From an uncultured Acidobacteriota bacterium (GTDB lineage Bacteria > Acidobacteriota > Terriglobia > Acidiferrales > UBA7541), in the NCBI GenBank assembly GCA_963813185.1, contig CAWEYA010000019.1, positions 44,561 to 108,560 on the forward strand: a stretch of DNA of 64,000 bases. The letters are read 5' to 3'. Shown here piece after piece: positions 1-16,326 of the stretch; position 1 is the first letter of the stretch, and each line of letters begins with the position of its first letter. Both the position numbers and the translations under genes were made by a program. A model generated the notes under the pieces. It saw nothing but the letters and a program-made list of their open reading frames with translations, made no database searches and had not been told where the DNA came from.

Positions 1-20
1 AAGCTAAAGCGTGCGCCACT
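1..20. repeat. Right arm of a type-A REP-like unit, cut by the window edge
   Basis: aagctaaagcgtgcgccact matches the right arms at 1893-1912, 2581-2600 and 5916-5935. Confidence 0.6.
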
Positions 21-88: not shown

Positions 89-265
89 ATGACCACAACT
101 TCCGCAACAACATCCTGGCAGTCCATCGGCCTTTACGTGCAGATCGCCGGAGCGGGCGCCTTCGTCGCCGGCATCGTCCTCAGCCTGCATCACTACGCGA
201 TCGGGGTCTGCTTCATCGCCGGCGCCGCCGCGTTTTACATCGGGAAAAAATTGAGGGCGTCGTAA
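89..265 (+). CDS. Small two-helix membrane protein (phage, function unknown)
   Basis: ATG at 89 with GGAG 5 nt upstream. Two hydrophobic stretches (IGLYVQIAGAGAFVAGIVLSL, IGVCFIAGAAAFYI). The ORF-track start at 50 is less likely. Confidence 0.5.
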   Translation: MTTTSATTSWQSIGLYVQIAGAGAFVAGIVLSLHHYAIGVCFIAGAAAFYIGKKLRAS

Positions 266-370: not shown

Positions 371-1812
371 ATGCCTTCCAAGGCCGACAAATCGCTGGCG
401 AAGAAATGCATCCGCGACTTCAAGGAATTTTGCAGGAAATTCGGATATACGCCTTTCGACCGCCAGAGTGAATTCCATAAATCCGAGGCCAAATACCGCC
501 TGTTCGGCGGAGCGGCGGGGCCCGGAAAAACGAAGGCCCTGCTGTACGAGGCCATCTACCAGGCGCATCTGCATCCGGGCGTGGACACGCTGCTCTTGCG
601 GCGCACCTTTCCGGAGCTCGAGGCTTCGCTGATCACCTATTTCCGGCGCGATGTGCCGCGCGAGCTGTACGAGAAATACAACGAAGCCAAGCACACCGTC
701 ACGTGGCTGAACGGCTCGACCACGCGCTTCGCCTATTGCGATACCGAAAACAACGTCTACCGCTACCAGGGCGCCGAATATTTATTCATCGGCGTCGATG
801 AGCTCACGCACTTCACCCTGAAGCAGTGGCAATTTCTCACCAGCCGCAATCGCTGCCGCATCAAAGGCGCCAAGCCCTGCATGGCCGGCGCCACCAATCC
901 CGGCAACATTGGCCACGCCTGGGTGAAGGCGCTGTGGGTCGATCGCGTCACGGCTCCGGGGATGGACCGCCCCGACCAGTACGATCCGGACGACTACGAA
1001 TTTATTCACGCAACGATCGCGGACAATCCGTACTTCGCGCACGACGACCAATATAAAAAAACGCTTGGACAACTTCCCGAGGCGCTGCGCCGCGCGTTTC
1101 TCGATGGCGAGTGGGACGTCTACGCCGGGCAGTACTTCGATATTTTTTCGCGGGAGCGGCACACCGTGCGCGCCGAGCAAGTGCAGCTCGAGCCGTGGAC
1201 GCCGCGCTGGATTTCGATTGACTGGGGATTCGAGCATCCCAGCGCGGTCTACTGGCACGCCACGCGCAATGACGGCGTCGTGGTGACTTATCGCGAGTTC
1301 GTGCAGAACCGCCTCTCGCCGCGCATCCGCGCGCACACGCATCCGCGCACATTTATCTTTCGCCGGACGCCTTCGCGCAACGCACCGCCGATGCTTCGAT
1401 CGCTGAGCAGCTCGGCGACGGCCTGGCCGCCGCGGGCCTGCCGCGCCCCACTCCCGCGGACAACGATCGCGTGGGCGGCTGGATGCTGATGTACCAGGCG
1501 CTCGAAGCCGATCACTGGCTGATCGCCGAAAATTGCCCGCGCCTGATCGAAAATTTGCCCACGCTCACGCGCGATCCCGCGAATGTCGAAGACACGCTGA
1601 AGTGCGACGGCGACGATCCCGCCGACTCCGCGCGCTACGGCCTGAAGTCCGCGCTGGAACCAGGCCGCGCCCCCGCGGAAGTCCTCGCCGCCGAGCGCAT
1701 CAGCGCAGTCGACCCCACCTCGCGCGCCATCTGGCTGAAGAAATTTTCCGCCGAAGAGCAGCGCAGAGTAGCCCCGGTAGTGCCAAGACGCTGGCGCCCG
1801 CAAGGGTGGTAG
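371..1812 (+). pseudogene. terL: Phage terminase large subunit with one frame switch around 1322-1350
   Basis: Walker A GGAAGPGKT and Walker B FIGVDELTHF in ORF 371-1489. The C-terminal nuclease-type sequence IYLSPDAFAQR...ADNDRVGGW continues in the frame of ORF 1471-1812. Confidence 0.85.
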
Positions 1813-1824: not shown

Positions 1825-1912
1825 AGTGGCGCATGCTTTAGCTTGCGGGGTTGGGTGGGAGGACAACGCACCTTGCCGCAACCAAACCCCGCAAGCTAAA
1901 GCATGCGCCACT
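1825..1912. repeat. Type-A REPIN-like double hairpin (AGTGGCGCATGCTTTAGCTTGCGGGG arms)
   Basis: The 28-nt left arm and its reverse complement are separated by a 32-nt spacer. Each arm holds a small internal hairpin gcatgc-ttta-gcttgc. Confidence 0.9.
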
Positions 1913-2468
1913 CATGCGCCACCCAATTTGGATTTGACGCGCTGGACCACGGCCAGTCTTCTGGGCTCGCAACAAGCCGCGCGGCGACCGGATTGTTTTC
2001 AATGTACGCACGAATTTTCTGCCCCTCGCCGGGATTCCGTACCCAGTGATCAAACGATTCCTCCTGCCAGAAGGGCTCTCCGGTGCGGCCCAGGATCAGA
2101 TTCGCAGCGCGGGCCGAGGCACCCTTGATTTGCAACGTGATCCGCTCGAGCGGCGAATTTGGAGCGAGCAACACGTGAACATGATTTGCCATCACGGCGT
2201 AGGCGCGCAGCGCGAATAGTTGCCGCCGCTGGGCCTCCCGCAGCGCTGTGAGAAGCGCCTCGGCGACGCGGCCATCTTTCAGCCACATGGGGCCGGTTTG
2301 GGCCTTGTCCAGGGCGCGGTCATAGTTGACGAAGGCCCTGCCGCTGGATTCGGCTTCCCTTGGCAGGCGGAATTGCGCGGGGAGCGAGCCGTGAAGCCGC
2401 CAGGTGATGAAGATGTCTTGCCCGGCGGGGTGCCAGTGCGGCAGACGGCGCTGGTAGAATGTCACCAT
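1896..2468 (-). CDS. REP-associated tyrosine transposase (RAYT; IS200/IS605-like Y1 HUH family)
   Basis: N-terminal RRLPHW, HUH motif NHVHVLL, C-terminal tyrosine motif AYIENNPVAARLV followed by DWPWSS. Start moved to the internal ATG at 2468, because the ORF-track start at 2522 lies inside the repeat. Confidence 0.85.
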   Translation of the reverse strand: MVTFYQRRLPHWHPAGQDIFITWRLHGSLPAQFRLPREAESSGRAFVNYDRALDKAQTGPMWLKDGRVAEALLTALREAQRRQLFALRAYAVMANHVHVLLAPNSPLERITLQIKGASARAANLILGRTGEPFWQEESFDHWVRNPGEGQKIRAYIENNPVAARLVASPEDWPWSSASNPNWVAHEWRML

Positions 2469-2513
2469 TCGTGACACGGTAGCACTGGCAGGCAAGCTGG
2501 ACAAGAGGTTTCC

Positions 2514-2600
2514 GTGGCGCATGCTTTAGCTTGCAGGGGTTGGGCGGGAGGACATCGCGCCTTGCCGCAACCAACCCCCGCAAGCTAAAGCATGCGCCAC
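2514..2600. repeat. Type-A REPIN-like double hairpin
   Basis: gtggcgcatgctttagcttgcagggg ... cccccgcaagctaaagcatgcgccac; near-identical to 1825-1912. Confidence 0.9.
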
Positions 2601-2607: not shown

Positions 2608-2871
2608 ATGCGGCAAACGATCATTACCTGGCTCGGACGGCGGTTGCGCGGGCGTTACGTGCTGCTTCTCGAGGAAGAATTGGCGCGGCTGCGCGCGGAG
2701 AATCGCGCGCTGGTGAATTCGCTGCTCGGGACGGCGGGTTTTCCGCCGATTTCGCTTGAGGACGACGCACGGCGCGGCGTGGTGGGCCTGCCTCCGGTGC
2801 GCCGCCGCACCTGGACGCAGATCGCTCGCGAAAGGGAATTCGCGGCCGGGAAAAACGCATCTGAAAAGTGA
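2608..2871 (+). CDS. Hypothetical coiled-coil protein
   Basis: 87-aa ORF starting 8 nt after the repeat. Helical LLLEEELARLRAENRAL segment. No recognisable family. Confidence 0.4.
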   Translation: MRQTIITWLGRRLRGRYVLLLEEELARLRAENRALVNSLLGTAGFPPISLEDDARRGVVGLPPVRRRTWTQIAREREFAAGKNASEK

Positions 2872-2875: not shown

Positions 2876-3124
2876 TTACGCCTTCTTAATCAAGCGCACG
2901 ATCCACAGCAGGATGCAGGCGCCGACGAAGGCCACGATGATGGAGCCGATTAGTCCGCCGGCAAAAATTCCGAGCAGGCCGAAGACCCATCCACCAATTA
3001 TGGCGCCGATGATGCCGATGACGATGTCCATGATCACGCCGAACCCGCCGCCCTTCATTACTTTTCCGGCCAGAAAACCGGCGATTAAACCGACGATAGC
3101 CCACCACAGCAATCCACTTAGCAT
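2876..3124 (-). CDS. GlsB/YeaQ/YmgE-family small membrane protein
   Basis: 82 aa, MLSGLLWWAIVGLIAGFLAGKVMKGGGFGVIMDIVIGIIGAIIGGW... The Gly-rich transmembrane pattern is typical of this family. GGAGG lies upstream of the ATG at 3124. Confidence 0.8.
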   Translation of the reverse strand: MLSGLLWWAIVGLIAGFLAGKVMKGGGFGVIMDIVIGIIGAIIGGWVFGLLGIFAGGLIGSIIVAFVGACILLWIVRLIKKA

Positions 3125-3224: not shown

Positions 3225-3357
3225 AGTGGTGCATGCTTCAGCTTGTGGGTTTTCGTGTGGCCACGGCTGATGGTGGCAAGCGACGATAGCATCACAGCAA
3301 GCATGATGAGATGGTGCCGCGTGAGACTAACCCCCGCAAGCTGAAGCATGCGCCACT
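3225..3357. repeat. Type-A REPIN-like double hairpin with a long (about 78 nt) spacer
   Basis: agtggtgcatgcttcagcttgtgggtt ... aacccccgcaagctgaagcatgcgccact, between divergent genes. Confidence 0.85.
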
Positions 3358-4406
3358 GCGAAATCTGATGGCCGCAGACTGAATCTGTGCTACGAAAAAT
3401 ATGAATACACAGCTCAATGATGCTACCGACATGGCCATCTTGAACGGCGAGAATGAAGCGCCGAACGACGGCAGCATTGCGCCGCTGGACGGTTCCTCCG
3501 CCGCCAGCGGATTTACCGCAAGCGGCGCGCAGTCCGCGCAGGGCGTAACTGCCGCGCGCGGCTTGCCGCTCGGCATTGACGGCAAGCAGCCGGCGGCGAA
3601 TTTGCAGGAAGCGCTGGCCAAGCAGGCGCTCGGGCCGAACAACGAGCGGCTCGAGGAACTGCGGCCGGATCTAGTGAATGCGCTGCGCGAACTCGTGGTG
3701 CAGTATCGCGAAGAAGGCATCGTCGCGCGGCGGCACGAAATTCGCCGCATCCGCCAAGCGCGCCTGTTCTGGCAGGGCTTGCAATACGCGTGGTGGAATC
3801 CGCAGGACATGACCTGGCACCTGCCCTACGAATCGAAAATTTACGATGACAGCGCCGCGGCGGAAATGCCGCGCTACCAGTTTGTCACCAATCTCTATCA
3901 GGCCTTCGGCCTCTCCTTTATTTCCATACTCAGCCAGGACGTGCCGGCTACGCGCTTCTATCCGCAGTCGGCGCAGTCCATAGGAGACATCACCGCGGCG
4001 CGCGCCGCTTCCGAGGTGTGCGATCTCGTCGAGCAAAACAATCGCGTGCAGCATTTGCTCACCGGCGTGGCGTTTTATTTGTGGACGGACGGAAAAATCG
4101 GCGGCTACGTGCGTTATGTCGCCGACGCACAGCGTTTCGGTTCGCACGATGAGCCGGTGATCGAGGAACATTACGTTCCGCTGGGCGATGACGCCTATGT
4201 GTGCCCCGAGTGCGGCGCGGAGCAGGAAGTAGGCGACGGAAGCAGGAAGCTGCGGAAGCAGGATCGGCAAGGAGGCAGGCGAATTCGAGAGCCCGCGTCT
4301 CAGAGGAGGAGAATTCGCGATGGGCTCGAGAAGCTGCGGGCGATACCGGCGCTGACGGGGAACGTGCGACGCTCTACAGTTTGCACGGCAATCGCTGACT
4401 GGGTCA

Positions 4407-4434
4407 AAATCCGCAAGCTGAAGCGTGCGCCACT
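4407..4434. repeat. Solo right arm of a type-A unit inside the portal reading frame
   Basis: aaaatccgcaagctgaagcgtgcgccact; no matching left arm within 200 nt upstream. Confidence 0.7.
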
Positions 4435-5801
4435 GGTGGCCCCGGCTTGCTTCCACCAGTGATCTGCAAGAACTGCGGGGCCTCGCTCGGGCCGGAACAT
4501 TTCAAACCCGCGCCGCGCGTGGCGGTGCCGCTGATTACCGGAGTGCGGCGCGTCGCCAACGGGCAGGAAGTGATCTCCGTGGTCGGCGGGCTGGAGTTGA
4601 ATACGCCCGTGTGGGCGAACGAGATGCACGAGTATCCGTACCTGCAATGGTCAGATGGAGGTGCATCGCGCGAAACTCAAGGCCAGCTACCCGCACGCGG
4701 CGGATAAAATTCAGATGGGCGGGCCGCAATCGGCGGACGAAGTGTACGCGCGGGCGACGCGCGTGGCCGATTGCGCAGGGATTGCCAACGACGCATCCGG
4801 GCGACGCGCTGTTTAATTTAATTACGTTTTCGCGGACCTGGATACGGCCGTGGTCGTTCTACGCGATCGAGGACAAGAGCGTGCGTGACGCGCTGCTGGC
4901 GCTGTTTCCCGACGGCTGCTATGTGGCGTTACGCGGGCGACACGTACTGCGAATCGCGCAACGAATCCATGGATGATCGCTGGCGCGTGATGCACGCGCT
5001 TCCCGGCGACGGGCAGAACCGGCCGAGCGTCGGCGATTCGCTGGTGCAGATTCAGGAGCGCTATAACACGCTCTCCAATATTCAGGCGGAAACGTACGAG
5101 TACGGCATCCCGCCGATTTACGCCGATCCGCAGGTGCTCGATTTCGACGCGCTCGCGAATCAAACGGCCGAGCCCGCGGCGCATTATCCAGCGCGCGCGC
5201 GGCCCGGTCAGCCTCTGGCGGCGGGATTTTTTCAGCCTGCCCCGGCGCAAGTGCCGCCCGACCTGGTGCGCCATCAGCAGGAATTGATGGGGCCTGTCGC
5301 GCAATTTCTTACCGGACTTTTTCCCGCCGTGTTTGGCGGCGAAATGGAATCGGTGAAAACCGCGTCGGGCTACGCCATGGCGCGCGATCAGGCGCTTGGG
5401 CGCCTGGGACTGGTGTGGCGGCGCCTGAAAACTTTTTATGCGGACGTGATGCTGCTGTCGGTGGACTGCTTCCGCAAAAATCGTCCCGAGGACGCGGAGA
5501 TTCCCATTCTCGGGCCGGGAGGCGAATTCGAGTCGCGCTGGATTCGCCTGGCCGATTTGAAGGGCAACATTCAGGCGCATCCCGAAAGCGACGAAACTTT
5601 TCCGCGGCTGAAATCGCAACAGCGTGCCGTGGTGCAACAACTAATGGCGTCGTCCGACCCGATGATCCAGCAGGCCCTCGCCGATCCGTCCAACATCGGC
5701 TTCGTGAAAGGCGTGCTCGGTTTGTCGGACCTGGTCGTGCCGGGCGAAGATTCGCGCAACAAGCAGCTGCGGGAGATCGATCAGCTGCTGGCCGGCGCGC
5801 C

Positions 5802-5935
5802 AGTGGCGCATGCTTCAGCTTGCGGGGTTTGGTACGAAGGAGACGTATCGACACACACGGCCGAGGACACGTCGAGCCCACCTGTTACAGCCCGGGAGCG
5901 CGAGACAAAAGCCGCAAGCTAAAGCGTGCGCCACT
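5802..5935. repeat. Type-A REPIN-like double hairpin inserted in the portal gene
   Basis: agtggcgcatgcttcagcttgcgggg ... gccgcaagctaaagcgtgcgccact, 134 nt. The portal frame changes from phase 1 to phase 3 across it. Confidence 0.9.
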
Positions 5936-6195
5936 CGAGCCCTCCGTCCCGGTGGATTTACTCTTCGATAATCATGTCGTCGAGCTGGAGGAGTGCAGAC
6001 GCTGGGCGAACTCGGACGCGGGGCAAATCGCGCGCATCGAAAATCCAGCGGGCTTCGCCAACGTGCGCGCGCACGCCGAGGCGCATTTGCGGGCAATCGG
6101 CCTGGCGTATGCCGCGCAGGGTGCGGGGCAGGCCACGAACCGGGGCGGATCCTCGCCAGCCTCTGATACGGTTGACGCTAATTCAAACCGGGACT

Positions 6196-6312
6196 CACCA
6201 CAGAGGACGCAGAGGAGCACAGAGGAAAAGCGGGAGAAACCTGGAGAGCGCGCTCATTCCTTACTCTGCCGATTATCTCTGTGGCCCTCTGTGATTCTCG
6301 GTGCCCTCTGTG
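6196..6312. repeat. Inverted pair of CACAGAG-type short tandem arrays
   Basis: Left array caccacagaggacgcagaggagcacagagga; right array ctctgccgattatctctgtggccctctgtgattctcggtgccctctgtg. Confidence 0.8.
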
Positions 6313-6980
6313 TAGAGCATTTGAATTTCAATAGTCATGCCAAGGTCTCGCCAAGGAGAGAACGATGAGCAGTGGAACGCAAGTGGATCTGGATTGGGCT
6401 GGGACGGATGCGGGGCAAGGCGGGGCGGGCGCTCCTCGGCGAGCGCGCCGAATAGTGGCGCGACGGGCGGGGCGTACCTGACGGACGAGGAAATTTTGGG
6501 GATTGACCCGCCTTCGCCCGACGGCGGCTTCGGCGCTCAGGCATGCCAGCAGAGCAACTCCGCGATGCGGGGCAGCAGAGACGATTCCTCGGCGGCGAAA
6601 GACGGCCCTGCGGATATGAAAGCGCCCACAGGCTGAACCATGTGCAAGCGGCCAGATGCCGGCGTGGATGGCGACGCTGGCGGCGGATCCGAAGCATGGC
6701 GGCGAGGCGCAGCAGCTTTGGCGCGAGCATCAGGAATTTCGCGCGGCGTTTGCTTCTCCGGAGGAGGCGCGGGCGATCAAGGAATTGTTGCCTGGAGGTG
6801 TGCGCGATGTTTTGACGCTGCGCGAGGCGACGCAGTCCGTGGACAGGATCGACGCGGCGATTTTTTCCGGCGATGCGCGGGCGCAGTCGGAAGTGGTGGC
6901 GGAGCTGGCGCGCGCAAATCCGGCGGCGTTTCGGTCGATGTTTGCCGAGGCGGCGAAAGTTCTGGCGGGGATGGGGACAC

Positions 6981-7027
6981 GAGGCAGTGAGGCAGGAGGC
7001 AGGGAAACAGGAGGCAAGGAGTCAGGG
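6981..7027. repeat. GAGGCAG-type 7-8 nt tandem array inside ORF 6656-7795
   Basis: gaggcagtgaggcaggaggcagggaaacaggaggcaaggagtcaggga. Confidence 0.6.
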
Positions 7028-7033
7028 AATCCC

Positions 7034-7114
7034 GCTGTAGCCCGCCTCTTCAGGGGCGGGGAAGTTGGCGCGAACGTTGAAGAAATCCCCGGGTCTAAAG
7101 ACCCGGGCTACAGC
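7034..7114. repeat. Type-C REPIN-like double hairpin inside ORF 6656-7795
   Basis: gctgtagcccgcctcttcaggggcgggg ... ccccgggtctaaagacccgggctacagc. GTAGC/GCTAC clamp, one small hairpin per arm. Confidence 0.8.
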
Positions 7115-7140
7115 AGTTCGCCCCAGCCAGCGTTGGACGA

Positions 7141-7209
7141 ATCACGAATCACAAATCGCCAGTCACTAGCCGCGAATCACGAATCACAAATCACGAATCA
7201 CCAGTCACC
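7141..7209. repeat. nnnTCAC heptamer array (about 10 units) inside ORF 6656-7795
   Basis: atcacga atcacaa atcgcca gtcacta gccgcga atcacga atcacaa atcacga atcacca gtcaccc; strict period of 7. Confidence 0.85.
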
Positions 7210-7278
7210 CTTCGCAGGAGCTCAGGGCGAGCCAGTCACTAGTCACCCTTCGCAGGAGCTCAGGGCGAGCCAGTCACC
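7201..7278. repeat. Tandem 31/38-bp direct repeat
   Basis: ccagtcac(tagtcac)ccttcgcaggagctcagggcgag occurs twice, followed by ccagtcacc. Confidence 0.85.
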
Positions 7279-7784
7279 GCATTTCGATCCTGCGGCCTAC
7301 GCGGCCTTTGAGCGGGCTACCAACGACGCTGTCGCGCGCGACGTGCGCGGGTCGATCGGCGACACTCTGGCGCGCGTGATGCCCGAAGGAGTGGCGGAGG
7401 GCGCCGCGCGGCGCATCGGCGAAGATATTTTCAACGAAGTGCATCGCGCGCTGGCGGCGGACCGCACGCTCTCCGAGCAGGTCGCCGGCGTGCTGCGCGA
7501 CCGGCGATTTGGCGGCGCGGAACAGCAGCGCGTCGCGGCGCTCCTCGCGGGACGCGCCAAGCAGCTGGTGCCCAGCGTGGCACGGCGCGTCATCGGCGAA
7601 TGGACCAGCACGGTGTTGAACACGGCGCGATCCAAAGCCGCGCGGCAAGCGGCCGCGGCGTCGCGCGTCGATATCGCCGCGCCCGGCGGCTCGCTCGACT
7701 CTATGCCCCTGCGTCAAATGTCGCCGCGCGAAGTGAACTACGCGTCGATGAGCGACGAAGAAATTCTTGGGAATGCGATGATGA

Positions 7785-7916
7785 GTGGCCAGTGACGCAG
7801 TGGCTAGTGGCTAGCTAAGAACCAAACTCAATTACGCCGAGGTTTTCCGGGACCGCAGCGGCAGTGATTCACGGTTCGCAAATCGCTAGCCACTCGCCAC
7901 TAGCCACTAGCCACTC
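7785..7916. repeat. Inverted heptamer-array pair (GTGAnnn 7785-7815, nnnTCAC 7868-7916)
   Basis: gtggccagtgacgcagtggctagtggctagc ... ttcacggttcgcaaatcgctagccactcgccactagccactagccactc. The stop codon at 7793-7795 lies in the first block. Confidence 0.85.
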
Positions 7917-7993
7917 TTCCGACCGATTTCAAGCCATCCTGCACTTCATACCTACTACCTGCATTCATACCCATATAACAACAAGGAGCCATC

Positions 7994-9265
7994 ATGGCAC
8001 AACAAAACAACGCACAAACCGTCGCGTTGCAACTGGAGAAGGTGCGCGACAAAGTGCCCCTGCTCTACGAGCGCGACGATGTTCTGCTCAGCATGATCCA
8101 GCAACGCGGTGACGTCGAAAAAGTCAGCTCGCGCAATATGCGCTTGCCCTTGCAACTCATTCCCGGCGGCAAGGCCGGCAGCTACAGCGCCGACGGCGGC
8201 GACCTGGGACTCGGCTCGGGCAGCACCTACGACGTGGCGCAAGTCTCGCCGATTTTCTTCCGTTTCGCGGTGCAAATCACCAAGCTCGTCGAATACGCCT
8301 CGAACGCGCGCGAGAAGGCCATCGAAAATGCCGTGAAACGCGAAATCGCCAGCGGCATGAAGCAATTCCGCGCCTTCCTTGACAAAGTGATCCAGACCGC
8401 CGGCAACGGCGTGCTGGGCACGATCAGCGCGATCGCCAGCAACACGTTCACCATGGCCGTGCCCACGGGCGCGGCGCTGGTCTACGTGGGGCAGACGATT
8501 CAGATTTACGATCCGACGCTCACGACCAACCGCAACGTCGCGGCCGGCGTGGTCACCAGCGTGACCGCGGCCGATCCGATATCCTCGACGCAAACCATCA
8601 CCGTGGACAATGTGCCTACGGGTACGTCCGTCAACGACGTGATCGTGCACGACGGCCTGACCGGCTCTTCGCCCGTGTCGCTCTTCGGCATCAAGTATCA
8701 TCAGAACAACGCCACCACCGGCACCTGGCTCAACCTCAACCGCGCAACATATCCGCAGCAATTGCAAACGCCGCGCGTCAATGCGGGCAACGCCGCGCTG
8801 GTTCCCGGCCACGCGCGCCTGGCGATCAACAAAGTCCGCAAAGCGCTGGGCATCAACCATCTCGGCAAACTGATCGCCTACACCAGCGTCGAGCAGGAAC
8901 ACGCCTGGGAAAATCTGGGCATCACGGTTTCCCAAATAGTAAAAGAAGGGCCGGGAGGCCGCGCCAGCGACCTGGACATGCTCTTCTCCGGAAAGAAAAC
9001 GATGTCCGGCATTCCGATCAAAAGTTCGGTGAACGCCGATCAGACGCGCGTGGATTTTCTCGACCTGTCGCACTGGGGCCGCGCGGTGATGAAGGACATT
9101 GATTTCTTCGAGGTGGGCGGGCAAACCGTGTTCCCGATTTATGGCGCCAGCGGCGGCATCTCCGCGTCCTTCATCTTCTATTTCGACACCGGATTCCAGG
9201 TGTGGAACGACTCCCCGCGCAGCGGCAGCTTCATCGATTCGCTGGCGCGGCCGAATGGGTACTAG
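7994..9265 (+). CDS. Major capsid protein (HK97-fold inferred)
   Basis: 423-aa intact ORF after the portal and scaffold. AAGGAG 6 nt upstream of the ATG. Size and position are typical; no motif could be verified without a search. Confidence 0.6.
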   Translation: MAQQNNAQTVALQLEKVRDKVPLLYERDDVLLSMIQQRGDVEKVSSRNMRLPLQLIPGGKAGSYSADGGDLGLGSGSTYDVAQVSPIFFRFAVQITKLVEYASNAREKAIENAVKREIASGMKQFRAFLDKVIQTAGNGVLGTISAIASNTFTMAVPTGAALVYVGQTIQIYDPTLTTNRNVAAGVVTSVTAADPISSTQTITVDNVPTGTSVNDVIVHDGLTGSSPVSLFGIKYHQNNATTGTWLNLNRATYPQQLQTPRVNAGNAALVPGHARLAINKVRKALGINHLGKLIAYTSVEQEHAWENLGITVSQIVKEGPGGRASDLDMLFSGKKTMSGIPIKSSVNADQTRVDFLDLSHWGRAVMKDIDFFEVGGQTVFPIYGASGGISASFIFYFDTGFQVWNDSPRSGSFIDSLARPNGY

Positions 9266-9275
9266 GAAGAAAAAC

Positions 9276-9333
9276 GTGAATGGTGGCTGGTGATTGGTGA
9301 CTGGTGAAAACCAAGTCGCCGGTCACCAGCCAC
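9276..9333. repeat. Short heptamer-array hairpin after the capsid stop
   Basis: gtgaatggtggctggtgattggtgactggtgaaaacc ... ggtcaccagccac; gtggctggtga pairs with tcaccagccac. Confidence 0.8.
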
Positions 9334-9357
9334 GCTTGTTTCCGGACGCGGCGTACA

Positions 9358-9503
9358 GTAGCACAGACTTCAGTCTGTGGGTTTCCATTTGATCTTGGCT
9401 GGGGGCCCCGTCCAAGCTGCGCGCCGCTTTTCGGTTCACGCAGGTATACGTGGCGCACGCTGGGCGAAATTGACAAAACCCCACAGACTGAAGTCTGTGC
9501 TAC
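9358..9503. repeat. Type-B REPIN-like double hairpin (GTAGCACAGAC)
   Basis: gtagcacagacttcagtctgtgggtt ... aaccccacagactgaagtctgtgctac. The spacer begins ccatttgatcttggct, as in 31412-31531. Confidence 0.9.
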
Positions 9504-9522
9504 CAAAGAACAGGAGAAGAAC

Positions 9523-9909
9523 ATGTCTGTCACACTTACGCTTACCGATATCGATCCGGGCGCGACCCAAATTTATGCCTTTGGCGCGGTGCATCTTTCG
9601 GGGAATTACCCTACGGGCGGCGACACCGTCGACTGGACGCAGCTCCTCGGGCAAATTGCGCTGCGCGGCGAAACCGTCGAATCGAGCATGGCCGATCCCG
9701 CGTACGGGCCGGTCCAGGCGAGCTTCACCGTGCAGGGCGGCACGCCCAATCAATATCAAATGCAGCAGGGCGCCGCGGCCAATAATTGGAAGATGCGCGG
9801 CTTCACCACCGGATCCAGCGGCGCGGAATTCACCGGCGGCTCGGCCTACCCGTCGTCGGCCACGAGCGACATCATCACGTTCTCCGCGCAATTCCGCAAA
9901 TTGACGTGA
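9523..9909 (+). CDS. Hypothetical virion protein (possible head decoration or accessory)
   Basis: ATG at 9523 after caggagaaga. 128 aa starting MSVTLTLTDIDPG. The ORF-track start at 9304 runs through repeats. Confidence 0.55.
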   Translation: MSVTLTLTDIDPGATQIYAFGAVHLSGNYPTGGDTVDWTQLLGQIALRGETVESSMADPAYGPVQASFTVQGGTPNQYQMQQGAAANNWKMRGFTTGSSGAEFTGGSAYPSSATSDIITFSAQFRKLT

Positions 9910-9936
9910 TTCGTGATCGTGAATCGTGGAAAACCA
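9906..9936. repeat. GTGAnnn heptamer array supplying the stop of 9523-9909
   Basis: gtgattcgtgatcgtgaatcgtggaaaacc. Confidence 0.8.
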
Positions 9937-10023
9937 GGCATGACAATGCAATGCGGTTTCGCAGCCCGGTCTGGCTCGCATCACTTGCGCCTCCACTCGT
10001 GCTGAAAGTTGTATACTATTTCT

Positions 10024-10259
10024 ATGAGTCCAGAAGCACGCCGAGCATTTATCAAACTTGCGCAAAACATCAAAAAAAATACTCCGCGAGTGAGGAGAAA
10101 CTGCGCAAGGCTGGGGTCAAAAGACCCGATCCCGCGCTGGTGTTCACTGCCGCAAAGTACTATGACTGCCTCAACCGCCTTGCCAAAGAGACAATAAAGG
10201 TCGCCTTTGCAGGTGGGCGCTCCATACATGCATTCGGCGCCATTAGTATAATCGTTTAA
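10024..10259 (+). pseudogene. Small low-GC gene split by an A8 tract (10072-10079)
   Basis: MSPEARRAFIKLAQNIKK in one frame, then YSASEEKLRKAGVKRPDPALVFTAAKYYDCLNRLAKETIKVAF... in the next. Both pieces look protein-like. Confidence 0.35.
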
Positions 10260-10317
10260 TTTAGTTCTCCTTTGCTGCATCCGCAAAACTTCTGTGATCC
10301 ACATTATTCGCGAAACG

Positions 10318-10417
10318 CATGACGCGCCGCCGGACGTGGCGCGCGAGCTCTTGCTTGCCGGCGGGCGCATGAGGCGCCGGCGGATGTGGCGCGCGCGCTT
10401 GAACTCGCGGGAGGGCG
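10318..10417. repeat. Diverged 50-bp tandem duplication
   Basis: The copies 10318-10367 and 10368-10417 match at 39 of 50 positions. They encode HDAPPDVARELLLAGGR and HEAPADVARALELAGGR in different frames. Confidence 0.8.
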
Positions 10418-10895
10418 CAATTTGTTTGGCGAGGCCAATTACCGGGCGGTGTGGGGATGGTCGCGGCTGGATTGGATTGGGGGGAAGTGGGAGGACCGCG
10501 ATCCTGTTTCGGGGGCGCTGGTCCGCGAGGTGGTGGAGCTGCGGCGCGAGCCGAAGTATGCGCCGCACAATCGCTGGCACATCGAGCGGTGGATGCCGGC
10601 GGAGAGCTACGGTTCTCCGGCCGAGTGGCAGACGCGGACGATCGAAATTGTGAATGGGCGGAACGTTCCGGCGCTGGGGCCGTATCCTTCGCGTGGGGAC
10701 TACGAGCACTGCTTCACGCTGGAGGGGCCGCGCGGCGAGTTCGTGCAACTGACGCCGGCGGTGGCGCGGCACATCGCGCGCGCGATTGAAACCAGTCGCG
10801 GCGTTCCCGCTGCGAAGAAAAGGGAAGCGCTCGAGGAGCGCACGCGGCGCGAGGAGCGCGAGTACGATGCGTACGCGGATGCAGTGCTGTCGTGA
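10386..10895 (+). CDS. Hypothetical phage protein
   Basis: 169-aa ORF with a GTG start. A possible older start at GTG 10294 is displaced by the 50-bp duplication. No recognisable family. Confidence 0.5.
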   Translation: MARALELAGGRNLFGEANYRAVWGWSRLDWIGGKWEDRDPVSGALVREVVELRREPKYAPHNRWHIERWMPAESYGSPAEWQTRTIEIVNGRNVPALGPYPSRGDYEHCFTLEGPRGEFVQLTPAVARHIARAIETSRGVPAAKKREALEERTRREEREYDAYADAVLS

Positions 10896-11090
10896 CTAGT
10901 GGCTAGTGACTGGTGACTAGTGGCTAGTGAACTGAGAATCGTGACGGATGACTCGTGAACGAAGGCGTGAGTCCTGATCGGCGATGAGGGATTTGAGATT
11001 TACGAATACCGGAATGTTTGTGCCATTGGCGGAGTCTGGTGATGTGGGTTTTGACCAGTCACCAATCACTAATCACTAGCCACCAGTCAC
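10892..11090. repeat. Inverted heptamer-array pair (GTGAnnn 10892-10970, nnnTCAC 11055-11090)
   Basis: gtgactagtggctagtgactggtgactagtggctagtga... and ccagtcaccaatcactaatcactagccaccagtcac. Confidence 0.9.
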
Positions 11091-11114
11091 ATTTCCGCAA
11101 GGAGAACAGCCAAA

Positions 11115-11765
11115 ATGCAAAGCGAGACCGCGGTTCACGCAGAGCGTTCACCACAAGCGGTAATTGCCAACATCACCGAGCAGCGCTACATGGCGCAGCG
11201 GATGTACGGCACGTTTCAGATTGCTGAGCGCGGCGAAGGGGAATCGTTCGCGCTGACGCGCATCACGCCGCGCACGGCGGTGATGGACTACGGCGACAAG
11301 CGCACGCTGCCGCTGGCCATTACGGCGCGCGAAATCGCCGAGGACCTCTGCCGCGAGATTAATTCCGACGCGGGCGAGCGCAGTTTTCTGGGCGTCTTCG
11401 TGTGCGCGGGCGACTCGCCCACCGAGCAGGAGTTGCGCGCCGCTCAGGAAAAGCTCGACGACTTTTACCGCGCCCTGGTGGCCGCGGCGGATCGCGAGTG
11501 GGAACGCTCGCACTCGTTTCTGTTCATTCACGATTTGCAGCGGCGCGCCGCGGCGCGGCTGGGCCTGGAAAAGGAATGGCATTACCAGGCGCGCGAAACC
11601 GAAGAGTGTCCCGGCTGCGGCGAGCGCGTCAAGCCCGGCGTGGCGGTTTGCAAATCCTGCCACGCGATTCTCAACCGCGACAAGGCGCTGGCCCTCGGAC
11701 TCGTCCAGCCTCCGCCCGAGGGAATGCCACAGAGACACAGAGCCGCAGAGAAGAGCAAAGACTGA
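11115..11765 (+). CDS. Hypothetical phage protein with a C-terminal zinc ribbon
   Basis: 216 aa. AAGGAG upstream. CPGCG...CKSC near the C-terminus. The last residues are encoded by a CACAGAG array (11727-11756). Confidence 0.6.
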   Translation: MQSETAVHAERSPQAVIANITEQRYMAQRMYGTFQIAERGEGESFALTRITPRTAVMDYGDKRTLPLAITAREIAEDLCREINSDAGERSFLGVFVCAGDSPTEQELRAAQEKLDDFYRALVAAADREWERSHSFLFIHDLQRRAAARLGLEKEWHYQARETEECPGCGERVKPGVAVCKSCHAILNRDKALALGLVQPPPEGMPQRHRAAEKSKD

Positions 11766-11771
11766 GAGTGG

Positions 11772-11914
11772 AACCACGGATGCACACGGATTCACACGGA
11801 TAAAAACCGATAAAGCAAATTAGACGGTTTTCAAGAAAACCGGCAAGCTTCTGGTTCTTCCCGCACAGTTTCTTCCCAGTTTTCATCCGTGTTCATCCGT
11901 GTGAATCCGTGGTT
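11772..11914. repeat. Inverted pair of CACGGAT-type short tandem arrays with internal hairpins
   Basis: aaccacggatgcacacggattcacacggat ... atccgtgttcatccgtgtgaatccgtggtt. The centre has aaaaccg...cggtttt and ggtttt-caag-aaaacc. Confidence 0.85.
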
Positions 11915-11945
11915 ACAAAGATTTTGCATTTATCACGGGAGATGA

Positions 11946-14900
11946 GTGGAAATGACGAGACTGACGAAACATTTTCTCGCACTGGCGGTGGTCGCGCTGC
12001 TGGCGTGCGGCGCTAACGCGCGCGCCCAGGGATCGCGCAAGGATGACATCGTGTTCAACGCGCAGGGGCGGCCGATGGCGGGCGCATCCGTGCGCGTGTG
12101 CACTTCCGCGGCCACGGGGCAACCGTGCTCGCCGCTGGCGCTGATTTACTCCGACGCGGGGCTGACGCAGGCGCTGGCCAATCCGACCTCGACCGACGGC
12201 CTGGGAAACTACAATTTTTACGCCGCGCCGGGACGCTACGAGATCGAGATCAGCGGCCCTTCCATCACAACCAAGCAGATCCCCAACGTGATTCTGCCCA
12301 GCGATCCGACCGCGCCCACCTTCACCACCGTCACCACCACCAGCGGCATTTCCGCGTTTTCGCTTTCGCTCAGCGGCAATCTCACCGTGAACGGTTCGGC
12401 CGCGGTGACCGGATCGCTCACCGTGGGCGGCAATCCCGTGCCCTCCACCAATCAGGATAACCAGTGGAACGGCGCGCAGCGCTTCAAGGGGCCGATTCCG
12501 TGGCGGGACATCTCGGCCTACATGCCTCCCGGGGGCTGCGATAATTCGGCGATCAACATCAATCAAAATACCTCGGGGAGCATCAGCGCGACTTCCACCG
12601 CTCTGACTCTCAGCGCGGATCTCGGATTCAAGAATGGTTGCGGCATTTTTGTGCAGGCCGCCGGTGCGACCTCGACTCTCGCCGCTCCCACCGTCGGCAC
12701 GCCGGCGCCGATTGTCTACGGCGGAACCGGCTCAACGACGGTTCACTACAAAGTAGCCGCCATCGATCCGCACCTCGGAACGTCAGCGGCCAGCTCCGCG
12801 ATCACGGTTACCACGGCGCCGGCCACGCGAACGCCCCTGGACATGGTTGCGATTTACTGGGCCTACGACGCGGGCGCCGTCGGCTACCTGATCTGGAGCG
12901 ATGCCACGGGTAGCTATACGCCGCTCGGATATTCGTTTCAGTGCTCGCAATTCTCCTCGGGCGGAGTTTGCGGCTACATTGACAAAGGGGCGGAAACTTT
13001 CAACTTCTCCAAGTCTTCGATGTTTCCGTTTTTTCCGTACACGCCGCCCGCGTCGGCCACGGCGGACGCGCTGGTTACCACGATTGTTTCAGGAGCGGGA
13101 ACACTCAGCCTGGTTCTTGCCAACGCGGCAACCAACTCATCCGGCGCCAATGCGTATGTCTATCCCGATGCCAGGCCCTTCTTTGATTCCGCGCTGGCTG
13201 CCGCTGCCGCGGACGGCACAAGCCTGAATCGCAGCCAGGTATTCATCCCCGAAGGACTTTGGTATTTGTCTGGAATCGATTTTCCGGCGAGCCCGGCGGG
13301 AGTCTCCATCGTTCAGAGCGGCGCGATTCAATTATTCGGGCTTCCGATCTTCGGCACCGTCGGAGGCGGTTCCGCAGGTTCGGGCGGGGTGTCCTGGTTC
13401 GGCAATGGCGGCGCTTATACTTCGGGCTTCTGGACTTTGTCGACCGCCAGTATTTTCGCGCAAACGCAAGTGGGCGCGATTTTCGTGGCCTACGGTAGCC
13501 CGAACAATATGGATCTGGAACGCCTGACTCTCAGCAGCAGCGAGGACGTCATCGTGGAAGATTCGCTGGGCGCCCTGACCATGAGGGATGATGAGGTGAT
13601 AGAGAATCAGGGAAGTGGCGTCGGATTGCGAATCGATGCGAATACCTATTTCAGCCAGTTCTATCATGTGGACTGGAACAGCTCAAACAACTCCAACACT
13701 CTGATTCCGCTGGTTTGGTATACCGGCCTGACGTCTTCCTTGCAATCCGCGGTATTTGGTTTTCACGACAATGCCTTCCGCTACCACACGATCAGGGATG
13801 ACGACATTTTCGGCGGTAACGCCTTCGGCACGATCGCCATTGATGGGACCACCAGCATCGAGAGCAACTGGGATCAAGGCCTGATCACAGCCGTGGCCGG
13901 CGGTCCCGGGAGCGTTTCCATCAGCGGGCAGGCGAGCGACAACGACCCCAACATACCGGACCAATCACTGCAATACGATTACGGACCGACCGGCACGCTT
14001 CCCGGCACCACCTGGAATGTGACGGCGAACTTGACGGGCTTTGTGCACTACGTCTGGGGCGCGCAGTTCGTCGGGAACGCCACCAGATGCATAGGTTGGA
14101 CATTCAACAACGCCAGCACGCTCCTGAACGGGCAGTGGGGAAGCGTGGACGGCACAACTTACGCAGGGTGCGACCTGGGCGCAACCTCGCTGGGATACGA
14201 TGTCCAGACTTCCGGAATTCTGACCAGCGGCGGGAACGATCCCGCGGTGGCCGCTCTGGAGCCCATGCTCGGCCATGTATTCCGCCGGCCGGTCCCCAGC
14301 GTGACGGGAACCGGCAGCGGATCGCTTTCCGCCGGCACCTATTATTTCGTTGCGACCGTCCTGGACGCGGCAGGCCGCGAGGGCGGGGCCAGCCAGGAGA
14401 TTTCGCAGACGGTCGGCGCAACCAGTTCCATCAACTTGTCGGTGGCGGAGGCCATTTACTTTCCTACTAGTTGCAACATTTATTATGGAACCACGCCTGG
14501 AGGCGAGGCGCACTTCTTCAATTCCACCGCCGTGACCAACGGCACTTGCACGTTTACGTTCACGTCCGCTTCCGGCACGGCGGGAACGCCGCCTGTGGTC
14601 GGCAACGCCATGCGTTCCTGGCTCAATCAGGAGAACAACGGCAACTCCTGTTTGTTCTGCGGACTCGGCGGCGGCTTGGGAACCGGCTTCCTGGGCTTCA
14701 ATCTCACAGCGTCGCAATATTCCGCGCTGCCGGCGGGCGTGCAATTTCCCTTTAATGGCGGCGTCCATAGCTATAAATTTTATTCGGCCTCCGAGACCAC
14801 CGCTCCCGCGGGGGTTGCCAACGTCGACCAGCTGTATGCCGACTCTACCGCGCACCGCTGGAAAAAAATCGAGAACAACGGCGCCGCGCAAACGGTGGGA

Positions 14901-15353
14901 AGCGCCGACAGTTCCGCGTGCGCTTACCAGGGTCCCGCGTCACCGGTCACCGGAACAGGGGCGGCGGCCACCTACTACACGTGCACGCTCCCGGCGGGCG
15001 TGATGGGTGCGGGGCAGGGAATCATCATCACCGTCCTGGCCAAGCACACGACGGGCACTGCCGCCGTTACGTACACGCTTTCGTTTGGCGGCACGTCCAC
15101 CACGGCCGTGGCCCCGTCCGGCGCGGCCAATCAACTCGAGCGCAACACCTACGTCATCATGAACAATCCGGGCTCGACCAGCGCGCAATCCATTTCCACG
15201 TTGGGCCAGGACAGCAATGGCGGAACCAACTCGATCAAGTTGGACACCGCGGCCGTCAGCACCGCGTCCGCGGTGACCATCAACCTGCAGTTCAACGTGG
15301 CGTCCACGGACGCCATTACCCCGGAAATGTTCCTCGTGGAATTGAAGCAGTAG
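11946..15353 (+). CDS. Large fibre/tailspike-like protein with a Sec-type signal peptide and an N-terminal CarboxypepD_reg-like domain
   Basis: 1135 aa. N-terminus LALAVVALLACGANARAQG, then GASVRVC...GNYNFYAAPGRYEIEISGP. The remainder is rich in Gly, Ser and Thr, suggesting a beta-rich fold. Confidence 0.6.
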   Translation: MEMTRLTKHFLALAVVALLACGANARAQGSRKDDIVFNAQGRPMAGASVRVCTSAATGQPCSPLALIYSDAGLTQALANPTSTDGLGNYNFYAAPGRYEIEISGPSITTKQIPNVILPSDPTAPTFTTVTTTSGISAFSLSLSGNLTVNGSAAVTGSLTVGGNPVPSTNQDNQWNGAQRFKGPIPWRDISAYMPPGGCDNSAININQNTSGSISATSTALTLSADLGFKNGCGIFVQAAGATSTLAAPTVGTPAPIVYGGTGSTTVHYKVAAIDPHLGTSAASSAITVTTAPATRTPLDMVAIYWAYDAGAVGYLIWSDATGSYTPLGYSFQCSQFSSGGVCGYIDKGAETFNFSKSSMFPFFPYTPPASATADALVTTIVSGAGTLSLVLANAATNSSGANAYVYPDARPFFDSALAAAAADGTSLNRSQVFIPEGLWYLSGIDFPASPAGVSIVQSGAIQLFGLPIFGTVGGGSAGSGGVSWFGNGGAYTSGFWTLSTASIFAQTQVGAIFVAYGSPNNMDLERLTLSSSEDVIVEDSLGALTMRDDEVIENQGSGVGLRIDANTYFSQFYHVDWNSSNNSNTLIPLVWYTGLTSSLQSAVFGFHDNAFRYHTIRDDDIFGGNAFGTIAIDGTTSIESNWDQGLITAVAGGPGSVSISGQASDNDPNIPDQSLQYDYGPTGTLPGTTWNVTANLTGFVHYVWGAQFVGNATRCIGWTFNNASTLLNGQWGSVDGTTYAGCDLGATSLGYDVQTSGILTSGGNDPAVAALEPMLGHVFRRPVPSVTGTGSGSLSAGTYYFVATVLDAAGREGGASQEISQTVGATSSINLSVAEAIYFPTSCNIYYGTTPGGEAHFFNSTAVTNGTCTFTFTSASGTAGTPPVVGNAMRSWLNQENNGNSCLFCGLGGGLGTGFLGFNLTASQYSALPAGVQFPFNGGVHSYKFYSASETTAPAGVANVDQLYADSTAHRWKKIENNGAAQTVGSADSSACAYQGPASPVTGTGAAATYYTCTLPAGVMGAGQGIIITVLAKHTTGTAAVTYTLSFGGTSTTAVAPSGAANQLERNTYVIMNNPGSTSAQSISTLGQDSNGGTNSIKLDTAAVSTASAVTINLQFNVASTDAITPEMFLVELKQ

Positions 15354-15455
15354 TAGCACAGCCACTCCTGGCTGTGCGGTTTTGCATGCTGAACACGCAG
15401 GCTGCGAATCCAGCGACAATCGCAAAAACCGCATAGGCAAGAGTGCCTGTGCTAC
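15353..15455. repeat. Type-B REPIN-like double hairpin (GTAGCACAGCC)
   Basis: gtagcacagccactcctggctgtgcggtttt ... aaaaaccgcataggcaagagtgcctgtgctac. It overlaps the last base of stop codon 15351-15353. Confidence 0.9.
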
Positions 15456-15495
15456 TGAGACCTTTCAACTAATCCGCACGAAAAGGACTCCACAT

Positions 15496-15900
15496 ATGCG
15501 CAAATTTCAAAATCACCGCTGGCGAGCTTCGCGCGCCCTGCTGCTTGCCTTCGCCTTGTTCGCGGCCGCAACCGCCGGCGCGCAAGGCGTTCCCCCAGGC
15601 ACCGCTCACAGCGTCACACTCACTTGGACGGCGCCATCGCCCGTGGGAGGTTCGGGAACGATCAGCGGCTACAACGTGTACCGCTCGCCGGCGAGCGCGG
15701 CAGCCTACACGAAGCTGGACACGGCCCTCACCGCCGGGCTGACCTACACGGACACCGCTGTGTCCGCGGGCGCCAGCTACAGTTATTGCGTGACCACTAT
15801 GGACTCGCTGAATGAAGAATCGGCATGTTCCGCGCCGGCCACCGCCAATGTGCCCTCAAACCCAAACGCCCCGAGCGCTCCCCTCATCACCGTAAAGTGA
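15496..15900 (+). CDS. Secreted fibronectin type III domain protein
   Basis: Signal peptide ALLLAFALFAAATAGAQG. SVTLTWTAP...GYNVYRS...YTDTAV...YSYCVTT is an FN3 pattern. Confidence 0.7.
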   Translation: MRKFQNHRWRASRALLLAFALFAAATAGAQGVPPGTAHSVTLTWTAPSPVGGSGTISGYNVYRSPASAAAYTKLDTALTAGLTYTDTAVSAGASYSYCVTTMDSLNEESACSAPATANVPSNPNAPSAPLITVK

Positions 15901-16187: not shown

Positions 16188-16234
16188 AATGAAACGACGA
16201 TCTGGTGAGCGCCTGGACAAATTATTAAGCACCT

Positions 16235-16326
16235 GGGACAGATTTCAGTCTGTAGGGTTCCGTCGATGCTTCGAGGCGCAGGCTTGCATAAGCAATGGAA
16301 ATCCACAGACTGAAGTCTGTGCCACT
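16235..16326. repeat. Type-B REPIN-like unit with a degenerate left arm, flanked by a 19-bp direct repeat
   Basis: gggacagatttcagtctgtagggtt ... atccacagactgaagtctgtgccact. gtgagcgcctggacaaatt occurs at 16205-16223 and 16337-16355. Confidence 0.75.

Follow-up and report, generated by a model that had tools for sequence, protein, structure and literature searches.

A REP-associated tyrosine transposase and its REPINs at a fixed site in a phage-derived gene cluster of uncultured Acidobacteriota

Can a phage carry a transposase of the REP-associated kind, together with the repeats that it mobilises, from one host to another? The question is raised by a stretch of 64,000 nucleotides from an uncultured Acidobacteriota bacterium (assembly GCA_963813185.1, contig CAWEYA010000019.1, positions 44,561 to 108,560; hereafter the window, in which all positions are counted from its first letter). 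A gene for a REP-associated tyrosine transposase (RAYT; REP, repetitive extragenic palindrome) lies there on the minus strand at 1896-2468, amid phage-derived genes and between two copies of a palindromic element. A preliminary description of this DNA saw in it the REP-RAYT arrangement known from other bacteria and suggested that a phage could be moving it between hosts. The first of these ideas is borne out by the HUH and Y1 motifs, by profile and fold matches, by the GT(A/G)G-footed hairpins that flank the gene and by the spread of the repeat. The second is not supported by the comparison of related loci. Most likely the locus is a REPtron, that is one chromosomal RAYT plus REPs with a GTGG foot and inverted REP doublets (REPINs) mobilised in trans, vertically inherited at a fixed phage-derived site.

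The open reading frame (ORF) at 1896-2468 is intact and encodes 190 amino acids (aa) assigned to the HUH/Y1 RAYTs by profile, sequence and fold matches. As the preliminary description stated in calling it a RAYT-type Y1 transposase, it contains RRLPHW, the HUH motif NHVHVLL and the tyrosine motif AYIENNPV, followed by WPWSS. It passes the Pfam model Y1_Tnp (PF01797; 31.4 bits, cut-off 23, E 2.3e-7), and its top NCBIfam model is the equivalog REP_Tyr_transpos (NF047646; 72 bits, E 4.7e-20), the IS200 model remaining far lower at 21 bits. The top match in a sequence search of the PDB is 4er8, the Escherichia coli TnpA-REP bound to a REP hairpin, whose EHMHCIW and DYIYINPV align with the HUH and tyrosine motifs. 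The same structure (4er8_A) ranks first in a Foldseek search with an AlphaFold model built from 36 homologues (E 1.7e-4, TM 0.46/0.52), with the ISDra2 and IS608 transposases next. N95-H96-x-H98, Y155 and an FWQxESFDHW block are invariant in these 36 homologues. The family comprises 2828 database proteins at E <= 1e-3, those listed being mostly of 181-183 aa; several carry the JGI name 'REP element-mobilizing transposase RayT' or originate from metagenome-assembled genomes (MAGs) of Candidatus Acidoferrales/Acidiferrales. The RAYTs of the window and of the related locus L001 (related loci are cited here by such numbers) exceed the usual 181 aa by 9, since their last codons and stop come from the downstream REPIN (window 1896-1925). 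The C-terminal tail of another homologue, P0075, is REP-encoded too (…AQASACGD). Purifying selection acts on the gene (dN/dS 0.08-0.20, Nei-Gojobori method), and its dN is 4-5 times that of the terminase. The RAYT is the only one within the window.

Translation may start at an ATG at 2468 or at a GTG at 2465. The spacer upstream of the gene (2469-2512, minus strand) holds an extended -10-like TGCTAnnnT, with GTCAC-N5-GTGAC around the start codon. In an alignment of this region (window 2440-2512, minus strand), TGCTAnnnT followed by GTCAC-N5-6-(G/A)TGAC across the start codon is conserved in 10 lineages. To judge from this conservation, TGCTAnnnT may represent an extended -10 box whose leader is very short, accompanied by a small palindrome; a sigma-70 consensus scan found no promoter for the RAYT in the upstream spacer.

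The gene is bracketed by two REPINs. REPIN A (1825-1912, 88 nt) lies between the convergent 3' ends of the terminase gene and the RAYT gene, whose stop codon falls within its right arm, and REPIN B (2513-2601, 89 nt) occupies the divergent region between the RAYT and the next gene, g87. Aligned directly they score 74, and in inverted orientation 48, so that the two are direct copies, in agreement with the preliminary description. They are about 93% identical, spacers included. The bounds proposed earlier for the first copy hold, those of the second had to be widened, and the differences amount to six substitutions and one indel (end positions counted), where about five differing positions had been given. 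Folded as single-stranded DNA, each forms one long hairpin (-43.3 and -42.5 kcal/mol, z about -10.4), and none of 200 shuffled sequences was as stable. The arms had been described as 28 nt long; the arm quoted is in fact of 26 nt, and pairing extends over 32 nt with 97% complementarity in each flanking REPIN. An Rfam scan of the window at gathering thresholds gave no match.

The arm GTGGCGCATGCTTTAGCTTGCGGGG, allowing up to three mismatches, occurs eight times in the window, against 0.00 expected from 100 shuffles. A looser match raises the number to 12 arms between positions 1 and 21912, and thus recovers the recurrences reported beforehand. Ten of them form the pairs 1825/1887, 2513/2576, 3225/3332, 5802/5910 and 21764/21884. 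The third pair is REPIN C (3225-3357), 133 nt with a long spacer (-41.9 kcal/mol, z -6.1), in the intergenic stretch that precedes the putative portal gene. The fourth is REPIN D (5802-5935, 134 nt), within the putative portal gene at a position called site 2, where it is out of frame and introduces a stop codon. The fifth is REPIN E (21764-21912, 149 nt), between the gene for an 895-aa virion protein and a 185-aa gene. The remaining two arms are single: one at site 1 of the putative portal gene (4409-4434, minus strand), where it separates the CPECG half of a zinc-ribbon-like motif from the CKNCG half, and one truncated by the window start (1-20, minus strand; AAGCTAAAGCGTGCGCCACT, repeat family D8), which is identical to 5916-5935.

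Each arm is made up of a GT(A/G)G foot (GTGG in the window) and, after it, a 7-bp hairpin with a TTYA loop, and this layout is that of canonical REPs (PMC6006769, PMC3733652). In every relative examined, REPINs stand on both sides of the RAYT, and their arm type is specific to the lineage. The type GTGGCGCATGCTT(T/C)AGCTTGCGG is common to the window, L001, L002 and L061; L004 and L009 carry GTAGCGCAGGCTTCAGCCTG(T/C)GG, and L113, L157 and L190 carry GTGGCGCAGGCTTCCAGCCTGTGG. Further types are GTAGCACAGGCTTCAGCCTGTG in L010, GTAGCACAGACTTCAGTCTGTG in L158, GTAGGAC(A/G)GGCTTCAGCCTGTC in L159 and L008, and GTAGCGCAGACTTCAGTCTGCG in L231. When 12 variants are aligned, the foot positions G2, T3 and G5 are invariant and 96% of the stem cells are paired, the only unpaired ones being a T.T or C.T mismatch limited to the window's own type. 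Three of the seven stem pairs change on both sides, in a compensatory manner, and the covariation score is reached by none of 500 shuffles. RAYTs with a common REP type are also nearest to each other (window and L002, 83%; L113 and L157, 86%). These sequence comparisons indicate that RAYT and REP changed together lineage by lineage, as is known for other REPIN-RAYT systems (preprint on REPIN-RAYT systems). In other lineages the two flanking REPINs have unlike spacers. Furthermore, near the 3' end of the putative portal gene one codon position (site 2; window 5773-5960) is occupied by a different REPIN type in each of three lineages: by the window's own type in this genome, by GTGGCGCCGGC… in L008 and L002, and by GTAGCACAGGC… in L158.

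The repeat extends far beyond this locus. An exact scan of GTDB species representatives with the 23-mer GTGGCGCAYGCTTYAGCTTGCGG returned at least 94 stretches. At least 20 of these, on 20 contigs, belong to the MAG palsa_90, at least 26 to Candidatus Acidiferrales SMAG_U9837 and at least 26 to Candidatus Acidoferrum SMAG_U12711, and at least six further acidobacterial MAGs hold lower counts. Together with the 12 arms of the window, these numbers from related MAGs speak against the idea that the flanking repeat might not be over-represented elsewhere in the genome, which would have spoken against a REP. At least 30 pairs of plus and minus arms were found, and the commonest spacing of arm starts, 49 nt, corresponds to REPINs of about 72-75 nt. 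A RAYT is encoded on one (L061) of the 94 REP-bearing stretches listed, which span about 0.7 Mb. The exact 23-mer also occurs in at least three contigs of Chloroflexi MAGs (Promineifilum, Ardenticatenaceae; L013, L028 and L068), with four copies on one strand at 32-nt spacing in L013 (144-262); misbinning, transfer or a different repeat structure could be the cause.

Such hairpins might alternatively be regulatory or terminator structures selected in the host and not mobilised by the RAYT, which would have been domesticated for another role. The REPINs are indeed mostly intergenic, as between the convergent terminase and RAYT genes, and the intergenic space of the window is also filled with other hairpin families and 7-nt arrays without a visible transposase. 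However, the REP type beside the RAYT changes with the RAYT lineage, orthologous sites hold different REPIN types according to lineage, copies within a coding gene break it, and near-identical copies lie on many contigs. These four features agree better with copying by a cognate enzyme than with conservation in place, and we regard the regulatory alternative as very unlikely.

The position of the RAYT is as constant as its repeats are variable. The same slot with the same neighbours was found for all nine RAYT clusters looked up (62-99% identity), and further for L061, L107, L113, L190 and L231, giving at least 14 distinct sequence versions in total. To the left of the RAYT, the shared order is cytochrome c, g123, g106, genes for proteins of about 448 and about 780 aa, g58 and the terminase gene; the RAYT gene follows on the opposite strand from the terminase gene, and then come g87, a Transgly_assoc gene, the putative portal gene, g446 and the capsid gene. 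On the left flank, cytochrome c and a 167-192-aa protein are common to L004, L008, L009, L010 and L030. On the right, a metagenome scan with the DsbA-like protein yielded 80 contigs. In every contig of sufficient length except L191, L216 and L223, the right end of the cluster comes after NAD synthase and the DsbA-like gene, with a DsbA-like identity of 57%-96%. At least 25 metagenome contigs have this right flank in common. The loci with the cluster between the same host genes include L002, L010, L157, L159, L189, L208 and L236-L239, dozens of contigs overall. The same main groups appear in neighbour-joining trees whether these are built from the host flank or from the cluster's right end. Between the window and L009, the terminase has a dS of 0.69-0.84, NAD synthase one of 0.80 and the DsbA-like gene one of 1.09. 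The terminase and capsid genes display dN/dS values of 0.04-0.11. L113 was considered as a case of RAYT replacement (capsid near that of the window, RAYT 67%) and dropped, since L113 and L157 are sisters for both genes.

This constancy bears on a reading in which the RAYT and its two direct REPINs form a self-mobile unit akin to the IS200/IS605 insertion sequences, recently inserted beside the terminase gene. The two REPINs do resemble left and right ends, being direct and about 93% identical including their spacers, and the RAYT matches IS200 profiles weakly. Against this, the slot does not change in any lineage sampled, with protein identities as low as 62% and a RAYT dS above 1; the unit has one copy in the window and there is one RAYT among the 94 REP-bearing stretches listed, the flanking spacers differ within other lineages, and a TnpB gene is lacking. 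We consider this reading extremely unlikely.

The phage hypothesis deserves closer attention. It would hold that an active temperate phage, or another particle-forming element, carries the RAYT among close hosts and always enters the same attachment site. Several observations are in its favour. Most lineages keep intact terminase, putative portal and capsid genes, with dN/dS of 0.04-0.11 at dS 0.3-1.3. Fifty-one contigs with a related terminase (42-95% identity) are classed as viral in IMG/VR, and two of them, L107 and L113, both from one subclade, encode a RAYT. Phage-like genes of other kinds lie at the DsbA-like site in distant loci: a GH108 lysozyme, Phage-tail_3 and GH18 downstream of the DsbA-like gene in L223 (14603-20850) and a ParB-like gene in L216 (10730-16405); L191 (3100-11600) has housekeeping genes there. 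The site is thus perhaps an old integration hot spot. A deletion junction common to non-sister lineages hints at exchange, and in the most distant pairs the terminase dS is lower than the host dS (see below).

However, the same host genes stand on both sides, cluster and host trees agree, and in closer pairs the dS of the cluster equals that of the host. None of the related loci has a recorded integrase, repressor or replication domain, though most of their proteins match nothing. In four lineages the RAYT is immediately preceded, within the cluster, by one or two genes for transporters of the MFS/BT1 type (MFS, major facilitator superfamily), which are host genes (L008, 8487-9803; L010, 6787-9642; L158, 6396-7802; L159, 6545-7834), not in the window. 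The RAYT remains where packaging or structural genes are broken or deleted (window, L008, L158, L009, L190 and L231), the terminase gene being broken in L008 and L158. In particular, a segment corresponding to window positions ~3951-23320 (19.4 kb, spanning the putative portal from aa 182 onwards and reaching the tail genes, its right end at the start of a 181-aa gene) is missing in L009, L178, L190 and L231, with junctions at ~7890, ~4850, ~8600 and ~10845, respectively. In spite of this loss, L009 has intact terminase and RAYT genes, L231 has an intact terminase gene with RAYT-coding sequence beside it, and L190 retains RAYT-coding sequence (the L178 contig ends before the RAYT region); the terminase dN/dS is 0.10 in L009 and L231. 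Finally, the cognate REP on dozens of host contigs calls for a long residence.

The direct searches point the same way. No RAYT homologue was found among 50,697 GenBank phage records. In 48 of the 51 IMG/VR relatives the slot is empty, the terminase gene being directly followed by g87/g133; in L106, whose terminase is 87% identical, nothing but 7-nt repeat arrays lies in the spacer. Peptide words of the window RAYT retrieved no relative from IMG/VR, the RAYTs of L107 and L113 having surfaced only through the terminase scan. The proposal that a phage moves the REPIN-RAYT system between hosts finds no support in these searches, nor in the shared slot and host flanks, the matching trees and the persistence of the RAYT after the 19-kb loss. 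Carriage by an active phage appears quite unlikely.

Several results nevertheless weigh against a vertically inherited REPtron or soften single parts of the argument. The profile search upheld the Y1_Tnp assignment, yet REP_Tyr_transpos, although the best model, scores 72 bits, below its curated cut-off of 80, and the confidence of the AlphaFold model is moderate (pLDDT 65). All 12 cognate arms of the window lie in its phage-derived part, 10 of them within 4 kb of the RAYT, and none in its 41 kb of host DNA; this clustering fits local insertion, tolerance to insertion in a decaying region, or both. The RAYT dS is 1.4 to about 4 times the terminase dS, in estimates near saturation, so that occasional replacement of RAYT alleles is possible. 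In the most distant pairs, the dS of NAD synthase (2.1-2.4) exceeds that of the terminase (0.8-0.95). Lastly, the 19.4-kb deletion has the same junction, GGCGAC joined to AAATGATCGA, in L009, L178 and L190 and a near-identical one in L231, and these four are non-sisters in both the host-flank and the cluster trees. It is possible that the same deletion recurs, or that alleles have been exchanged between lineages at this locus.

On balance, the chromosomal REPtron remains the reading that we favour, and a mechanism can be proposed for it by transposing what is known from E. coli and Pseudomonas. By analogy with the E. coli TnpA-REP, the RAYT would be an HUH/Y1 nuclease-ligase acting on single-stranded DNA, where it would recognise the GT(A/G)G tetranucleotide that forms the 5' foot of REP hairpins; it would then cut and rejoin at the foot and copy REP doublets to new, mostly intergenic places. 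The RAYT gene itself would stay put, the REPINs being copied in trans. It probably entered the slot between the terminase gene and g87 once, in the ancestor of one Acidobacteriota subclade (related records are named Candidatus Acidoferrales, Acidiferrales or Acidoferrum), and would have been inherited with the chromosome since, regardless of whether the neighbouring phage genes remained functional. In the window, where the cluster is defective, REPINs have piled up around the RAYT, two of them in the putative portal gene.

The defects of the cluster are visible gene by gene. Its window part extends over positions 1-25986 on the plus strand and its left end (about 5 kb) lies outside, for a total of about 31 kb including that left part. 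It encodes, in order, g58, the terminase, the RAYT, the putative portal, a g446-like protein, the capsid, structural proteins of 1135 and 895 aa, and lysis-like proteins. The conserved gene g58 (89-265, plus strand, 58 aa) holds the same position upstream of the terminase gene in every related locus. The large terminase gene (371-1812, plus strand; Pfam Terminase_6N and Terminase_3; 31-37% identical to the TerL of cultured phages) is a pseudogene here, read in frame 2 to ~1333 and in frame 1 from ~1330. Compared with the intact 493-aa terminases of L001 (96% nucleotide identity) and L002, it shows a net frameshifting deletion of 40 nt at ~1331-1340, and tblastn with these two proteins splits at aa 321/334 between two frames; a sequencing error does not account for this 40-nt lesion. 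Beyond the RAYT follow g87 (2608-2871, plus strand, 87 aa, equivalent to g133 of L002), which directly succeeds the terminase gene in relatives without a RAYT, and a gene for a small membrane protein of the Transgly_assoc type (2876-3124, minus strand, 82 aa), whose homologues in L010, L157, L158 and L159 carry PF04226.

The putative portal gene (3401-6104, plus strand) is a pseudogene in at least five pieces, which tblastn of the intact 909-aa L002 protein places in frames 2, 1, 2, 1 and 3. Apparent single-base insertions are seen by eye, and REP insertions mark two of the breaks, namely the single arm at 4409-4434 and REPIN D at 5802-5935. Searches of Pfam, PHROGs and the PDB sequences returned no match for it, as for most cluster proteins, and it is called a portal from its position and size only. 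Farther along, the capsid gene (7994-9265) is intact and shows a weak match to a major head protein family, the matches of 18468-21155 are to virion structural families, and 24267-25986 resembles a lysis cassette (a small membrane protein, an SLT-type transglycosylase and a 199-aa membrane-anchored protein). A minus-strand ORF at 23269-23979 was considered as a host gene at the right border and rejected, L009 and the ORF list showing plus-strand cluster genes there. ARAGORN found no tRNA or tmRNA gene in the window that could mark an attachment site. The placement of the RAYT between the terminase and portal genes of a prophage can thus be kept in part: the neighbours are phage-derived, but two small genes intervene, the portal is unconfirmed and both genes are broken. 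Judged by its packaging and head genes, the window does not hold a functional prophage, the terminase gene being frameshifted and the putative portal gene in pieces.

The long persistence of the cluster in other lineages could have a different cause. It may be a domesticated particle-forming system of the Acidoferrales clade, comparable to the gene transfer agents (GTAs) and selected at a fixed site over a dS of about 1, an option that we judge fairly unlikely. If it were true, the RAYT would have been resident since one subclade arose, and it may spread among relatives in particles or be functionally tied to the system; the repeated loss of the same 19.4-kb module would then be a specific rearrangement and not decay. 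Vertically inherited prophage remnants under purifying selection were reportedly described by Bobay, Touchon and Rocha in 2014. Like domesticated prophages and GTAs such as RcGTA, the cluster has a fixed site, codivergence with the host, terminase and capsid dN/dS of 0.04-0.11 and no integrase on record. Unlike them, it has broken or deleted packaging or structural genes in about one third of the sampled lineages; it is known from its genes alone, and no sequence relation to the RcGTA genes was seen.

Other repeat families populate the same DNA. Arrays of 4-10 tandem 7-nt units (GTGAYTN, or TCACNAN on the other strand) lie in many intergenic regions of the window; frequently two arrays in inverted orientation, at a distance of 100-140 nt from each other, enclose a core. 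They were located at 7137-7209, 7886-7915, 9276-9308, 10892-10961, 11047-11090, 15967-16020, 16569-16595, 18403-18465, 23092-23133, 23241-23272, 24552-24585, 33347-33378, 33422-33467, 38575-38672 and 38817-38848, and at 5440-5560 in L106. One array inside the ORF 6656-7795 is translated (…ESQITNHQSP…). Other hairpins with a GT(A/G)G foot, for example GTAGCACAGACTTCAGTCTGTGG, GTGGCACAGGCTTCAGCCTGTGG and GTAGGACAGGCTTCAGCCTGTC, match the types that flank the RAYT in L158, L010 and L159; they were noted at 9358, 9503, 16325, 22464, 22561, 24136, 24158, 31412, 48899 and 54889-54962, and may be relics of earlier REP types or partners of other RAYTs in the genome. A third hairpin family, (G/C)TGTAGCCCGCCTCTTCAGAGGCGGGG, occurs at 310-338, 7087-7115 and 51209-51237. 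At site 1 of the putative portal gene, L002 and L157 carry an inverted pair of (G/C)TGTAGCCCGCCTCTTCAGAGGCGGGG with 7-nt repeats, in frame in an intact gene; the insert is translated as …AVARLFRGG…GSEDPSYSS…SPVTSHQSPVT…, and the same peptide pattern is found in the window ORF 6656-7795.

Among known systems, the closest is the REPtron of E. coli (TnpA-REP/RAYT, yafM, 4ER8; its REPs and bacterial interspersed mosaic elements, BIMEs). The two have in common the HUH and tyrosine motifs (4er8 being the top PDB match in both sequence and fold), a gene flanked by REP pairs, one gene serving many REPs, and a GT(A/G)G foot followed by an imperfect hairpin, with a T.T mismatch in the stem of the window type. 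They differ in that the proteins share about 18% identity over the fold alignment, the foot is GTGG here and GTAG in E. coli, and the present host is an acidobacterium whose RAYT has phage-derived neighbours. The Pseudomonas REPIN-RAYT systems (Bertels and Rainey; Group 2 and 3 RAYTs) are similar in their REP doublets forming long hairpins, in a RAYT that is inherited vertically and stays in one extragenic space from species to species, and in the joint change of RAYT and REPIN; most REPINs here are shorter (about 72-75 nt), those flanking the RAYT having 88 and 89 nt. With IS200/IS605 elements (TnpA of IS608 and ISDra2), which provide the next-best matches, the RAYT shares the HUH/Y1 fold and, by analogy, probably a hairpin-guided single-strand chemistry. 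Unlike these elements, it has a fixed locus, a single copy and no TnpB, and its flanks belong to a dispersed repeat family instead of being private ends. In cultured Acidobacteria, Di Nocera et al. (2013, PMC3733652) described RAYT-like 'TIRYT' genes with long flanking inverted repeats, and the phylum is not listed there among those with GTAG repeats. Compared by description only, TIRYTs are alike in phylum, in the RAYT kind of tyrosine transposase and in flanking palindromic repeats; they differ in having terminal inverted repeats as flanks, whereas canonical REPs with a GT(A/G)G foot are found here.

According to the preprint on REPIN-RAYT systems, RAYTs are absent from horizontally mobile elements. 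The present RAYT lies in a phage-derived, though fixed, cluster. As that cluster is itself a fixed and vertically inherited part of the chromosome, a RAYT beside a terminase gene is not a counter-example to this rule, and the case supports the current view of REPIN-RAYT systems. It extends the canonical GT(A/G)G REP/REPIN-RAYT system to uncultured soil Acidobacteriota and provides a clear set of lineages whose RAYT and REP have changed jointly, with compensatory changes in the stem. It also shows that the same codon positions of one gene can hold REPINs of different types, which are in frame in certain lineages and break the gene here. The part most worth study is the surrounding cluster, which is long-lived and under purifying selection, has repeatedly lost the same 19.4 kb and harbours several repeat families, some of them translated in frame.

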